This document shows positions 1,095 through 17,089 of a DNA stretch of 28,651 nt, one piece after another. Positions within the stretch are counted from its first letter, which is position 1. Each line of letters opens with the position of its first letter. The notes beneath the pieces were generated by a model. That model saw nothing but the letters and a program-made list of their open reading frames with translations, ran no database searches and was not told the DNA's origin. The stretch is from positions 1 to 28,651 of the forward strand of contig JAXHTN010000001.1 in assembly GCA_034190145.1 (NCBI GenBank), in the 5' to 3' direction. Both the position numbers and the translations under genes were made by a program. The DNA comes from Halobacteriota archaeon (lineage in GTDB: Archaea; Halobacteriota; Syntropharchaeia; DAOWMC01).

Positions 1095-1121
1095 CAACCT
1101 TATTTTGAAGGCTGGAGAAAC
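1095..1121 (-). repeat. Probable fragment of the tRNA-Thr intron-like element (terminal hairpin)
   Basis: Minus strand GTTTCTC-CAGCCTT-CAAAAT-AAGGTTG versus intron CAACCTT-CAAA-AAGGTTG. It ends 1 nt before the tRNA-Ser 5' end. Confidence 0.4.
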
Positions 1122-2655: not shown

Positions 2656-3164
2656 TCTTTAACCACAACACCATATTCTTCACTCATAAATTCAATTGCA
2701 TCGTCCTTTGTAAGTTTATGACCACTTGGCACCTTTCTACTTTGTATCTTTCTATCTTTAATTCTGTATCCGGGCCTCTTTAGAGATACACACACATCCA
2801 TCCCAAATATCCCAACGTTCGGATCATACTTCATTCCGGCAAAATCGGTATGCTCTTCAATGCCAAATGAAAAACTTCCATTCTTATCGAAATTGGACGG
2901 TTTCAAACTCTTATGATTTATCTCAAGAGCATCTCTTAAAAACTTATCCCCTTTAGCACGCATGAGTGTGACTTTACATCCGATAGCCTCGCCTTTTCTC
3001 ACATCAAAAGCCGTCTTCTTAGCGTAGGTTCTCACTGGCTTCTGCTCAACGATAGACTCCAGTATTGTTTCGGCATTAGCAAGCCTTAGACCTGCTTCAC
3101 CGATACCCATATTAATAACAACTTTATCCAACTTCGGCCATCTCATCGGGTTCTCGTCTTTCAC
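2652..3164 (-). CDS. rpl5: 50S ribosomal protein L5 (uL5)
   Basis: [21 protein letters not shown]...[15 protein letters not shown]...FSFGIEEH...GIFGMDVCV. Likely start is GTG 3164 behind GGTGGAG. The track's TTG 3215 adds non-homologous residues. Confidence 0.95.
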
Positions 3165-3284
3165 TTTCTCCACCACAAACTTTAATACAAAGGTTTGATC
3201 AAAACACCTCACCAATTCCTGGAGAGGATTTGACGTATGGCTCTACCATACGCCGTGTAAATGATAAAACTCTTTCAAGTTTTA
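3165..3284 (-). repeat. Diverged copy of the tRNA-Thr(CGT) intron element upstream of rpl5 (putative 5' leader)
   Basis: 3231-3263 matches 15970-16002 at 28/33 nt. 3165-3205 resembles 15891-15929. Hairpin order and the outer stem are retained. Confidence 0.85.
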
Positions 3285-3290
3285 GTACAT

Positions 3291-3306
3291 ACTTTTATAT
3301 AAAAGT
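3291..3306 (-). promoter_or_regulatory. Perfect 16-bp palindrome ACTTTTATATAAAAGT containing a TATA box; likely promoter of the rpl5 block
   Basis: TTTATATA box directly after the pcn stop, about 130 nt upstream of the rpl5 start. Confidence 0.55.
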
Positions 3307-3309
3307 TTT

Positions 3310-4038
3310 TTATTCTGCTTCTATTCTTGGTGCAAGCAAATACTCGACATTACCTGCATCCCCTGCGATCTTAAATTTTATCTTTACAGGGAAATCCTTA
3401 CCAAGATCTATTATTGCTTCATCTGCTTTTGATATCGGTTTGCTCATATCTTTTAGATATTCAAGAGAGTACAAAGAACGTGCAGGGGCCGATTTTAGAC
3501 TAATGAGTTTGTCTTTGGGTAATTCTAACCTCACCTTGTCAAGATCTCCCTTGGCCTCCATATAGAACATATCTCCTTCAACACCAAGAGCTATATGATC
3601 TGATATCTTCTCTGCCGCACGTACGGCTCTTCTGAACTCATCGCCACTCAGAATAACTTGAGCAGGAAGTTCAAGAGCAGGAATCTTTGGGTCCTTTCTC
3701 AGAGAGGACGGATCAAGAAGAGATATTGCGTAAGTGAGATTAAGGAATCTTACGAGAAGTTTCCCATCATCAGTTTCTATAGAAACATCGTTAGAACCGC
3801 TCATACTTATAATATCATTCAGTTTTACAAGATCAACACCAATTTCTCCATCAGATGCCTCGAAAGAGTTAAAAGCCTCTGAACTTATCTCAAAAGATAC
3901 CATTGCAACATTTGCAGGGTCAACTGCCCTTATAATTATTCCATCGTCTTTGAGCTTGAATCGGGCTTCATCAACAAGTGTTGAAACCACCTCAATCAAC
4001 TCCTTTAATATTCCTGCACTTATTACAGCCTTTAGCAT
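3310..4038 (-). CDS. pcn: DNA polymerase sliding clamp PCNA
   Basis: MLKAVISA..LKELIEVVSTLVDEARF...RAVDPANVAMV...YSLEYLKDM...LGKDFPVKI...YLLAPRIE. Start ATG 4038 preferred; alternative 4053. Confidence 0.97.
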   Translation of the reverse strand: MLKAVISAGILKELIEVVSTLVDEARFKLKDDGIIIRAVDPANVAMVSFEISSEAFNSFEASDGEIGVDLVKLNDIISMSGSNDVSIETDDGKLLVRFLNLTYAISLLDPSSLRKDPKIPALELPAQVILSGDEFRRAVRAAEKISDHIALGVEGDMFYMEAKGDLDKVRLELPKDKLISLKSAPARSLYSLEYLKDMSKPISKADEAIIDLGKDFPVKIKFKIAGDAGNVEYLLAPRIEAE

Positions 4039-4245
4039 ATACTTCCCCACCATGTAAGGAGTGCTTCAACCCCACATATATTTTTCTCATCATCTATCAG
4101 TGACCTCAGAGAAAGTAACCGAGATTAATTATTACAATATAGGATCCATTTAGATAAATAAAGGAAGGAATAGACAGCGAATAATTTCACTTTCACCCCG
4201 CACATGGCAAATTCGTAAGTACTGGAAGATATAGCTTATAATTGA

Positions 4246-15681: not shown

Positions 15682-15854
15682 ATTTTCCCTCAGCAAATTA
15701 ACACATTTATTATTTAATTAGTAATATATTGTTATTTTATTGTATATAAATATATCTTTTTGTTATACTAAAATTTGCATTAGAAGATACCGTCCGAATC
15801 ACCCTCTCAGAAAAAGCTAACTAGAGAAAACAGAAAAAAACAGATATTTAACAA

Positions 15855-16061
15855 AGCCGCTGATGGGATTCGAACCCACGATCTGCTGATTTTCCGCACC
15901 AAATTTTTAAATAAAAGGTTGAACAAAACGTCCACCTTCGTTTGGACTAATCCCGACGGAGTCGGTATATGACGTATAGCTTTGCCATACGTCGTGCAAA
16001 TGTTCAACCTTTTTGAAGGTTGTTACGAATCAGCCGCTTTACCGAGCTAAGCCACAGCGGC
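15855..16061 (-). tRNA. tRNA-Thr(CGT) with a 133-nt intron at canonical position 37/38
   Basis: 5' exon 16061-16024 GCCGCTGTGGCTTAGCTCGGTAAAGCGGCTGATTCGTA; 3' exon 15890-15855 ATCAGCAGATCGTGGGTTCGAATCCCATCAGCGGCT. Acceptor GCCGCTG/CAGCGGC, anticodon stem GCTGA/TCAGC, U73, 74-nt mature form. Confidence 0.95.
15891..16023 (-). other. Archaeal tRNA intron (BHB type), highly structured
   Basis: BHB central helix UUCG(32-35)/CGGA with bulges UA^A and AA^A. A 13-bp perfect internal stem encloses three hairpins. Confidence 0.92.
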
Positions 16062-16069
16062 ATCAAAGA

Positions 16070-17089
16070 TCATCTGGCGATCTTTTCTATCCGAGCATCT
16101 ATTACAATGTTATACTGATGAGGTGCATAAGACCTTATCTTTCTTTTGTTATCTATTCGAACAATGTAGTTCCCGGCAGCATCTTTTATCGCATTGGTTG
16201 CATCCAAGAAGAGATCATCTTCATGGCAGATATCGTAATAATGTAGGGTGCCTTTCTCTTTCAGCATCATTATCGCATCAGTTAAAAATTCTTGAGCAGT
16301 ATGCGGCAGGTTCATTATCACCCTATCCGCAATGCCTGTAAGTTTTAAGGAAAACACTCTGGAATCACCTTCGAATACTGTTGCGTTATCGATCCTATTC
16401 AACTCAATATTTCTTCGCATGTACTTTATCGCATCAGGGTTAATATCGATTGCAAAAACCTTTTTTACCTTCTTTGCAACAGGAATCACAAAAGACCCGA
16501 CTCCTGCAAACATATCTACAACCACATCATCTTGATTTATCAGACTTGCAATCCTGGATCTCTCGGTCGAGAGGCGGGGACTGAAATAAACAGTCTGAAG
16601 ATCAAGGGCATAAGAACATCCATATTCCCTGTGGATGGTCTCAGTCCTCGCCTCTCCTGAAATAACCTCATAATTCTTCACCCGAAACTCACCCTGGACC
16701 GGTGTAAGTGGTTTGAGAACCACTTTTATATTTTTATGTACTTCAAGTATCGCCTCTGCTGATGATATGGGATCAATTCCCTCTTCGGAATTTAAAATTG
16801 CAATATCGCCCACCACTTCATAAGAGGGTGAAAATCCAAGTAAGTCCTCAAGCGTCAGCCTCCCGACTACAGGTTCAAAATCCGTTATTGAAAAATCTAC
16901 AAGGGCTCCCTTAAGATTCATAGCATCAATCTCATGATATTCAGGAAAACTCTTCACAGGTATGTACAAGAACTTACCATCCGGATCGGGTGCAATCTTA
17001 AGCCCGATATCGAGGAGGTTCGCATCAATTAATCGCCTCCGTACCAATTCCCCGTACCTTTTTGCTACTTTAACAGATGGTGATTTCAT
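16070..17089 (-). CDS. trm5: Trm5-family tRNA (guanine37-N1) methyltransferase
   Basis: SYEVVGDIAI, HREYGC.YALD...YFSPRLSTER, VDMFAGVG, AIDINP.A, DRVIMNLP, plus the N-terminal D1-like domain. The Trm5a/b/c subtype cannot be resolved. Confidence 0.9.
   Translation of the reverse strand: MKSPSVKVAKRYGELVRRRLIDANLLDIGLKIAPDPDGKFLYIPVKSFPEYHEIDAMNLKGALVDFSITDFEPVVGRLTLEDLLGFSPSYEVVGDIAILNSEEGIDPISSAEAILEVHKNIKVVLKPLTPVQGEFRVKNYEVISGEARTETIHREYGCSYALDLQTVYFSPRLSTERSRIASLINQDDVVVDMFAGVGSFVIPVAKKVKKVFAIDINPDAIKYMRRNIELNRIDNATVFEGDSRVFSLKLTGIADRVIMNLPHTAQEFLTDAIMMLKEKGTLHYYDICHEDDLFLDATNAIKDAAGNYIVRIDNKRKIRSYAPHQYNIVIDARIEKIAR

Follow-up and report, generated by a model that had tools for sequence, protein, structure and literature searches.

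Where does the intron of an archaeal transfer RNA (tRNA) gene come from? The question is raised by a 133-nt intron in a tRNA-Thr(CGT) gene, found in a stretch of 28,651 nucleotides (hereafter the window) from a Halobacteriota archaeon (assembly GCA_034190145.1, contig JAXHTN010000001.1, positions 1 to 28,651). The literature gives no settled answer: the mechanism of intron transposition was called unknown in a 2014 review (PMC4090602), the route of arrival in archaea is stated to be unknown in reviews and in a 2026 preprint, and the intron gains of an Asgard test set were not explained by mobile elements (reviews/2026 preprint). Introns that probably derive from a repeat, as described here, address this question. 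In our view a functional tRNA-Thr(CGU) gene was probably interrupted, in the ancestor of the host's family, by a non-coding, palindrome-bounded repeat that now stands as a canonical bulge-helix-bulge (BHB) intron. The anatomy of the intron, its membership in a dispersed family and its derived state with respect to outgroups are directly observed, as are a conserved BHB and genes for the processing enzymes. The host is an uncultivated methane- or alkane-cycling archaeon; its metagenome-assembled genome (MAG; designated G000) measures 2.1 Mb, is 90% complete, has a GC content of 41.6% and encodes a divergent McrA. It belongs to family f1, which also comprises G001 (same genus), G002 and G003, and which was compared with other families of its class (f2 to f6), the family relationships used being unrooted.

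The interrupted tRNA-Thr(CGT) gene

Reading of the sequence together with ARAGORN places the gene on the minus strand, from 16061 to 15855, with the intron at the canonical site 37/38 (16023 to 15891), as proposed in an earlier prediction made from the letters alone (hereafter the original prediction). Read in this direction, the strand runs GCCGCUG...GCUGA-UU-CGU-A, 133 nt of intron, and A-UCAGC...CAGCGGC-U; the 5′ exon (16024..16061) covers tRNA positions 1 to 37 and ends in ...GCUGA UU CGU A, and the 3′ exon (15855..15890) extends from position 38 to the discriminator U73. With introns enabled, ARAGORN returns the gene as c[15855,16061] with an intron of 133 nt, and the gene was missed both by ARAGORN without the intron search and by the Rfam tRNA model. 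Cutting at 37/38 leaves a 74-nt class I tRNA, named Thr(cgt) by ARAGORN, with a normal cloverleaf, the 7-nt loop UUCGUAA, a short variable loop and U73. The label given by ARAGORN to the unspliced window gene, Leu(caa) i(36,133), was rejected because the junction had slid by two bases and Thr(CGU) fits better; the G003 orthologue is directly named Thr(cgt) i(38,154). All tRNA calls combine ARAGORN with manual reading of the BHB, and for isotype decisions the BHB register, the class I shape, the discriminator base and the outgroup homologues outweighed the ARAGORN labels. Annotators should be aware that long introns hide tRNA genes from default searches and that sliding junctions misname isotypes (Thr as Leu here, Arg(CCG) as Trp below). 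No second copy of tRNA-Thr(CGT) was found in G000, G001 or G003, and tRNA-Thr(TGT) is present in G000 alongside it. A true tRNA-Trp gene was not found in the G000 assembly.

The splice motif is complete. Its central helix pairs U32-U33-C34-G35 of the anticodon loop (16026..16029, minus strand; conserved in G000, G001 and G003) with C128-G129-G130-A131 of the intron (15893..15896, minus strand, followed by 2 nt of the 3′ bulge) in four of four pairs, and is flanked by two bulges of 3 nt each, U36-A37|A1 on the 5′ side and A-A|A on the 3′ side, which put the cuts at the exon-intron borders. The valid UUCG/CGGA motif of the original prediction is thus present as described. Helix h is the 5-bp anticodon stem; helix h′ consists of a C-G and an A-U pair in contiguity, which is the minimum for an hBHBh′ motif (at least 2 bp), two further C-G pairs being reachable across a 1-nt bulge. 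Across G000, G001 and G003, this 4-bp helix and its two bulges persist, and variation is confined to bulge nucleotides. The enzymes expected for processing are encoded in G000 as well: EndA is represented by PF01974 twice within a single 399-aa frame on contig C112 (98.7 and 91.8 bits, catalytic-type domains) and, judged from this architecture, is of the tandem-domain, alpha′2 type, and RtcB is found on C282 (452 bits).

The intron itself is bounded by inverted repeats built on the palindrome AAMCTTTT-loop-AAAAGKTT. Its left terminal repeat (16001..16022, minus strand) consists of the palindrome CAACCTT-CAAA-AAGGTTG followed by AACA, aligns with the left ends of copies outside tRNA genes and includes, at intron positions 11-23, one arm of a perfect 13/13 inverted repeat recovered by repeat search (15913-15925 / 16001-16013). 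The right terminal repeat (15899..15925, minus strand; TGTTCAACCTTTTATTTAAAAATTTGG, i.e., GTTTTGWTYAA plus palindrome) is the inverted counterpart of the left end; when both ends are compared, the terminal inverted repeat extends imperfectly beyond the 13/13 core, to about 22-27 nt. Between these ends lie three hairpin modules on the minus strand: GACGTATGGC-AAA-GCTATACGTC (15971..15993), found by repeat search and conserved in eight copies; CCGAC-TCC-GTCGG (15953..15965), with the counterpart CTCGCC/GGCGAG in G003 copies; and the variable GTCCA-AACGAAGG-TGGAC (15930..15947), replaced or expanded in other copies. The latter two, shorter than the seed of the repeat search, were read from the sequence and a constrained fold, and all three modules had been foreseen. 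RNAalifold detected three pairs with changes on both sides, across two predicted helices (the GACGTATGGC hairpin and the 5′ hairpin).

The folding energy of the intron is -44 kcal/mol, with a z-score of -5.1 relative to shuffled sequences. The predicted 13-bp stem closing a four-way junction stands in so far as the stem is perfect and the junction is present in folds of the pre-tRNA, but the minimum-energy fold of the intron alone favours a 7-bp 5′ hairpin, CAACCUU/AAGGUUG, which was also recovered by repeat search and competes with the stem. In these models, the four-way junction would be the outcome expected from inverted terminal repeats placed around hairpin modules, and need not be a functional cloverleaf. 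Neither C (RUGAUGA) nor D (CUGA) boxes occur in the intron, in agreement with the original prediction, and no small nucleolar RNA (snoRNA) or small RNA (sRNA) family of Rfam comes near threshold; a gathering scan of the window and a permissive scan of 15800-16120 gave no Rfam match to the intron, which thus matches no RNA family catalogued there. The intron contains no open reading frame (ORF) of more than 15 aa and no homing endonuclease.

A dispersed palindromic repeat inside and outside tRNA genes

The sequence of the intron is not confined to tRNA genes. The original prediction had pointed to a homologue at 3165-3284 of the window, and this copy indeed matches the intron (blastn E = 2.6e-6; 78% column identity over the whole length) and extends further, filling on the minus strand the spacer (about 3150..3309) between pcn (stop codon 3310) and rpl5 (ATG 3147-3149), genes identified by Pfam. 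Its palindromes lie at 3283-3308 and 3177-3195, and the copy is orthologous in G000, G001 and G003. The copies have a common anatomy: a left palindrome (CAAMCTT..AAGKTTG) and a (G/A)AWCAAAAC-like sequence, then GC-rich hairpin modules that differ from copy to copy, and finally GTTTTGWTYAA with the right palindrome. In the spacer copy, about 30 nt separate the end of the right palindrome from the start of rpl5, and GGTGGAG follows the palindrome. It is pcn, and not rps4e, that precedes rpl5 in the window (3147-4053), the usual rps4e-rpl5 order being found in G040 and G007; the cassette might provide this relocated operon with a promoter and a ribosome-binding site.

The distribution of the family was mapped by pattern and BLAST searches. 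Matches to the whole intron occur only in the four genomes of f1, with 16 in G003, including, in near full-length form, one copy that precedes an unrelated gene (G003:C262; E = 1e-24, 80% over 123 nt) and another one located 2 nt downstream of tRNA-Pro(CGG) (G003:C312). The right-end motif was counted 5, 9, 4 and 18 times in the four f1 genomes (reversed-pattern control: 0), many of its copies lying at contig ends, as expected because repeats break assemblies, and an exact 26-nt motif matched only two MAGs, named ‘Halobacteriota archaeon ... tar_biofilm’. Counts of the core palindrome range from 7 to 35 in f1 genomes and reach 40 in f4, where most genomes carry it, against 0-2 matches per genome for the reversed pattern, and the same search found none in f2, f3 and f6. 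A distribution restricted to f1 was thus rejected, since the shorter palindrome pattern is also spread across f4. Palindromes outside tRNAs exceed intron copies by more than 10:1 and, in family f4, also form tandem arrays with a period of 39 nt (G041:C107:20-155; G037:C221:10600-10696).

Copies outside tRNA genes do not carry a recognizable splice motif: a loose BHB scan that recovered the true motif in the tRNA copy gave only weak, non-conserved matches at shuffle level in the others, which indicates an element without a complete splice signal of its own. A self-contained mobile intron, with a BHB around the non-tRNA copies, was rejected on this ground. At the place where the purine tract of the intron sits, the non-tRNA copies have a Shine-Dalgarno-like GGAGG or GGTGG.

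Some members of the family adjoin tRNA genes without interrupting them. In the window, a solo palindrome, CAGCCTT-CAAAAT-AAGGTTG (1095..1114, minus strand), ends about 1 nt before tRNA-Ser(GCT) (1006-1094), and further copies lie next to tRNA-Pro (L008), tRNA-Ala (L098, L069) and tRNA-Val and tRNA-Gln (L079).

Other tRNA genes are interrupted by the same repeat. Introns of the palindrome family were found in five tRNA species, namely Thr(CGU), Arg(CCG), Gly(UCC), Arg(CCU) and Gly(CCC), those of the four further species ranging from 29 to 197 nt. The Arg(CCG) and Gly(UCC) cases came to light when all loci retrieved for the repeat were scanned by ARAGORN with its intron option, and the Arg(CCU) and Gly(CCC) cases through a class-wide pattern joining the right palindrome arm to the T-loop. 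All introns examined (23/23) are located at 37/38, with 3-nt bulges and a central helix of 4/4 pairs with loop positions 32-35. Moreover, the central helix covaries with the loop of its host (UUCG/CGGA, CUCC/GGGG or GGAG, CUUC/GAAG or GGAG, UUCC/GGAA). This covariation is the best available evidence for a selected pairing and hence suggests, by comparison of sequences, that the introns are spliced.

In tRNA-Arg(CCG), G000 has a single palindrome of 31 nt as intron, G001 a full element of 117 nt and G003 an intron of 197 nt. ARAGORN called the G000 gene (G000:C2:75-177) Trp(cca) i(36,31), a label rejected in favour of tRNA-Arg(CCG) with a canonical intron on the basis of the BHB (CUCC/GGGG), the discriminator G and the outgroup homologues, 30/30 of which are intron-less Arg(ccg). 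An interior segment is common to the G001 and G003 introns; most parsimoniously, therefore, the long form would be ancestral and the 31-nt form of G000 a collapse to one palindrome. A second G000 contig (G000:C300:10339-10385) ends inside the Arg(CCG) intron after an identical 5′ exon, and may reflect a contig broken at the repeat or another haplotype, in which the interior differs.

The tRNA-Gly(UCC) introns show a comparable range. In f1 they measure 29 nt in G000 and G001 (palindrome termini only), 67 nt in G002 (right end only) and 136 nt in G003 (full element). In f4, they consist of a solo palindrome of 30 nt in G042 and G037 (genus g16) and, in genus g22, measure 32 nt in G078, where the palindrome is degenerate, and 41 nt in G076, where a palindrome is present; 30 other f4 loci are intron-less. 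In f5, G007 carries a canonical 299-nt intron devoid of palindrome (L198; G007:C136:9700-10400), of which the first few and the last ~10 nt are as in the f4 and f1 introns, and which may be an older or differently stuffed version. The tRNA-Arg(CCU) intron is found in seven f4 genomes of four genera, in forms of 37 nt, 76 nt (a 39-nt unit duplicated in tandem) and 81 nt (hairpin modules inside the palindrome); tRNA-Arg(CCT) of G000 is intron-less. The period of the duplication behind the 76-nt form is that of the f4 arrays (introns of L214 and L216). Finally, tRNA-Gly(CCC) of G020 has an intron of 49 nt.

A cognate transposase had been proposed as a check. Genes of two types, IS200-type Y1 tnpA and a DDE_Tnp_4 fragment, do co-occur with the repeat, but none shares the ends of the element. 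The DDE_Tnp_4/IS5 type is not supported as an autonomous partner: only a C-terminal fragment of 250 nt, followed by hairpin and motif, is repeated in G001 and G000, no intact gene with the motif was found, and the sole intact IS5-type gene (C301) is without it. Both G000 and G003 encode IS200-type Y1 tnpA. A cassette of hairpins, GTTTTGATYAA and palindrome is found in the right end of the IS200 copies G003:C1, G003:C286, G000:C296 and C96 and is absent from G000:C44, forming a discrete indel whose right boundary falls exactly at the palindrome end; the cassette thus behaves as a unit. Copies with and without a cassette in their right or left end occur at G000:C44, C296, C96 and C306 and at L204, L206 and L208. 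A second type of cassette occupies the left end of two other IS200 copies, a 37-nt unit (palindrome plus ATCAAAAA and TGCTTCGC) breaks the tnpA frame in several copies, and the hairpin module GTCCGATCTCC...GGAGATCGGAC is common to IS200 cassettes and to the Gly and Arg introns of G003. A Y1 partner is nonetheless not supported: the cassettes interrupt IS200 ends and do not constitute them, and the phyletic match is imperfect, no Y1 match having been obtained in G001, G002 and G042, which carry 7-31 palindromes. The flanks of about 20 copies show no consistent target-site duplication, the boundaries being too blurred to exclude one of 1-3 bp.

Gain and origin of the intron

The intron is a derived feature of its family. 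A search for the spliced tRNA covered 79 genomes of the class, and all 30 outgroup tRNA-Thr(CGT) loci that were fetched (f3, f4, f5) are intron-less, with contiguous full-length matches in f6 genomes as well, which indicates a gain within f1; the intron-less sister alleles sought by the original prediction therefore exist. The split gene was found only in G000, G001 and G003, at the same site, with introns of 133, 134 and 154 nt, respectively, and the gene was not found in G002, a genome that is 64% complete. Relative to G000, exon identity is 100% in G001 and 95% in G003, where substitutions in the stems retain pairing. The intron interior has evolved otherwise: 88% of aligned bases are common to G000 and G003, with the 5′ hairpin duplicated in G003, and G001 has different hairpin modules inside its intron, relatives of which are dispersed in G003. 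The same intron allele occurs in a DNA contig from an independent study (run X4). Conserved exons and BHB, a single gene copy and this independent recovery argue against both an assembly artefact and a decaying pseudogene.

The genomic context is conserved too. A gene for a Trm5/TYW2-type tRNA methyltransferase (16070..17089, minus strand; Pfam PF02475, E = 2.3e-51) lies directly upstream of the tRNA in G000, G001 and G003, the 200 nt upstream being 84-85% identical in G001 and G003. In the window, this ORF ends 8 nt from the 5′ end of tRNA-Thr and no TATA-like box was seen between them (16062-16070); the tRNA may be co-transcribed with the methyltransferase gene or transcribed from within it, in an arrangement kept in G001 and G003. 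Elsewhere, an exon-intron junction pattern matched JGI metagenomes 11 times, always by chance in coding DNA and never in a tRNA. In runs X6 and X7, from two other metagenomes, the exons are joined by 17 other bases (plus strand ATATCGGGCCGTTTGCC) replacing the 133-nt intron; some other organism thus interrupts a Thr-like tRNA, at this site or close to it, by a short insert of unrelated sequence.

The following course of events is proposed. A copy of the repeat would have been inserted as DNA into the anticodon-loop region in the ancestor of the family. Given an element composed of two inverted terminal units around GC-rich hairpin modules, the ends would pair in the transcript and provide the outer helix h′, and the purine tract just past the right palindrome (CGGA) would pair with the pyrimidine-rich loop positions 32-35 (UUCG) to form the central helix, leaving two 3-nt bulges at exactly 37/38, i.e., a canonical BHB substrate. 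The tandem-domain EndA would cut the insert out and RtcB reseal the tRNA, yielding a mature tRNA and, by analogy with other archaeal introns, a predicted circular RNA of 133 nt; the intron would then be a tolerated passenger. A tRNA gene hit by an insertion without a BHB shape would be inactivated and the insertion eliminated, which is our proposed reason why all surviving introns are located at 37/38. The family could also collapse, leaving an ordinary-looking intron of ~30 nt. Three of the five host species (Thr CGU, Arg CCG and Gly CCC) are C34 isoacceptors, the codons of which can also be read by a U34 tRNA through wobble decoding, and Thr(UGU) and Arg(UCG) are present in G000; one may speculate that such redundancy eased tolerance of a first, perhaps inefficient, stage of the intron. 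The original prediction, namely that the intron arose from a small element with inverted repeats and that the 3′ end of this element pairs with the anticodon loop, accordingly finds support in the dispersed copies, in the 30/30 intron-less sister loci and in the tract beyond the right palindrome.

Three other histories have to be weighed against an insertion of the repeat into an uninterrupted, functional gene. The strongest of them, which we still regard as improbable, supposes two steps: a short intron unrelated to the repeat already occupied 37/38 and the element landed inside it as stuffing, the BHB strands being older. Such a history would account for the location of the central-helix nucleotides outside the palindrome unit; existing introns do grow, as shown by the 37-nt Arg(CCU) intron of f4 that reached 76 nt by tandem duplication or 81 nt by insertion of modules, and the 17-nt insert of X6 and X7 shows that this site of a Thr-like tRNA can hold a short insert in other organisms. 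However, no such short precursor appears among the 30 fetched outgroup loci or the further f6 matches, the intron coincides with the left end of the family (CAACC...) from its second nucleotide, as in non-tRNA copies, and the short introns of the class are themselves solo palindromes of the same family, so that even a two-step history would start from the repeat. We give very little credence to the reverse direction, in which a mobile intron that originated in a tRNA gene spread to other tRNAs and to intergenic sites, e.g., through its excised circular RNA or by copying of DNA. The occurrence of related introns in five tRNA species is what would be expected of it, the ends of the intergenic copy G003:C262 resemble those of the Arg(CCG) intron (AGTAAYCTT... 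/ ...GGAGAT-AG), and the Gly(UCC) intron, the most widespread (f1, f4 genera g16 and g22, and f5), could be old. Yet palindromes are more than ten times as numerous outside tRNAs, including in f4 genomes whose Thr(CGT) and Arg(CCG) are intron-less, the non-tRNA copies have no BHB above shuffle level, the arrangement of units in tandem with a 39-nt period and the unit within the tnpA frame of an IS200 are typical of DNA repeats, the f5 Gly intron has no palindrome, and no reverse transcriptase was seen, although no search was aimed at one. The spreading intron that the original prediction envisaged as an alternative thus retains the presence of the same repeat in four further tRNA species, but not the splice signal or the distribution that it would call for; the absence of a BHB from non-tRNA copies and the far greater abundance of the palindrome outside tRNAs point to the direction from repeat to intron as the likely one.

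A dead gene is, to our judgement, just as hard to credit. According to this explanation, the insertion inactivated tRNA-Thr(CGT), leaving an unspliced pseudogene, and ACG is decoded by tRNA-Thr(UGU). The presence of tRNA-Thr(TGT) could indeed make the C34 isoacceptor dispensable, helix h′ is weak and, among the runs listed, none of RNA holds the locus. Against this, the exons are identical (G001) or nearly so (G003) with pairing kept, even though the interior of the G001 intron has been replaced, and the 4-bp helix and both bulges persist in three genomes with changes only in bulge nucleotides. The exact geometry recurs, moreover, in 23/23 introns of five tRNA species, including tRNA-Gly(UCC), besides which no other tRNA reading GGA was found in G000 (an incomplete assembly).

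Several observations speak against the interruption of a functional gene by the repeat and are to be set beside the evidence in its favour. The outer helix h′ has only two contiguous base pairs, and the unconstrained minimum-energy fold beats the cloverleaf-plus-BHB fold by 3.7 kcal/mol. Among the runs listed, the locus is held by DNA contigs only. All genomes are incomplete MAGs, and a second, intron-less copy of tRNA-Thr(CGT) may therefore exist. On the side of mobility, no target-site duplication is visible, no transposase with the ends of the element was found among the candidates examined, the link with IS200 Y1 consists of cassettes inserted into the insertion sequence and not of shared ends, and G042 has 31 palindromes and no Y1 match. 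The central helix is formed by the 6-10 nt that separate the exon from the right palindrome; these fall outside the unit defined by the IS200 indel and are not accounted for by it, and the direction from repeat to intron rests on distribution and parsimony.

Relation to known introns and repeats

In mechanism, the intron conforms to the ordinary BHB type; what sets it apart is that its source can be identified. As in the canonical BHB introns of Haloferax and Halobacterium tRNA-Trp and tRNA-Met, the site is 37/38, the 3-4-3 BHB is formed half by the anticodon arm and half by the intron, and an alpha′2-type EndA and RtcB go together with an expected circular release (PMC4090602, PMC12558985). 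Unlike these introns, the present one has 133 nt without a C/D guide, in contrast to long introns of the tRNA-Trp type with their C/D-box sRNA; its sequence belongs to a dispersed repeat family, and it is absent from the same tRNA of sister families. No paper tying archaeal tRNA introns to a dispersed palindromic repeat was found in a limited literature search.

The transposed introns of Thermoproteales offer another precedent, since related sequences are found there in different tRNA genes within a single lineage (Fujishima et al., 2010, as summarized in PMC4090602 and bioRxiv 10.64898/2026.10.13.758758). As far as these summaries go, the two cases share a recurrence across isotypes that implies spread at the DNA level, constrained by the need for a BHB. 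On the one hand, Thermoproteales introns are described there as often non-canonical in position and processed by an EndA of broad specificity, and the summaries name no donor outside tRNA genes. On the other hand, the introns reported here are at 37/38 in 23/23 cases, in a Halobacteriota class whose EndA has tandem domains, and members of their sequence family abound outside tRNAs.

Among DNA repeats, the family resembles the repetitive extragenic palindromic (REP) elements, which in bacteria are mobilized by RAYT Y1 transposases (PMC2817692). With REP, REPIN and BIME elements and the PATEs of IS200/IS605, it has in common a short palindrome, tens of copies, inverted doublets, tandem arrays and a lack of coding capacity, and IS200-type Y1 tnpA genes co-occur with it in G000 and G003. 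It differs from them in that no RAYT-like partner is shown and in that its cassettes are inserted into IS200 ends instead of forming them. Furthermore, we know of no REP that forms an intron. The family is also reminiscent of miniature inverted-repeat transposable elements (MITEs) by its terminal inverted repeats, its size and coding content (133 nt, with a longest ORF of 15 aa) and the unrelated contexts of its copies in four genomes.

Eukaryotic introners are MITE-like DNA transposons that create spliceosomal introns and reach thousands of copies. We lean, with slightly better than even confidence, towards regarding the present REP/MITE-like palindromic family as an archaeal ‘introner’, of which a copy at 37/38 with a pairable loop gives birth to a new intron and a later collapse between the two terminal palindromes leaves ~30 nt. 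If this held generally, archaeal tRNA introns, even short ones of unrecognizable source, would have a concrete route of origin at the DNA level. The donor family, the recipient genes, the intron-less sister alleles, the long and collapsed forms and the covarying splice helix are visible side by side in one class, which makes the arrival of introns testable through the mobilizing enzyme, EndA cleavage and new insertions in populations. As with introners, a non-autonomous repeat would contribute through its ends to the splice signals, insertion would be tolerated and gains would be repeated; unlike introners, the reader is the protein EndA, which recognizes an RNA shape, instead of a spliceosome, the hosts are tRNA genes, and the intron copies amount to a handful.

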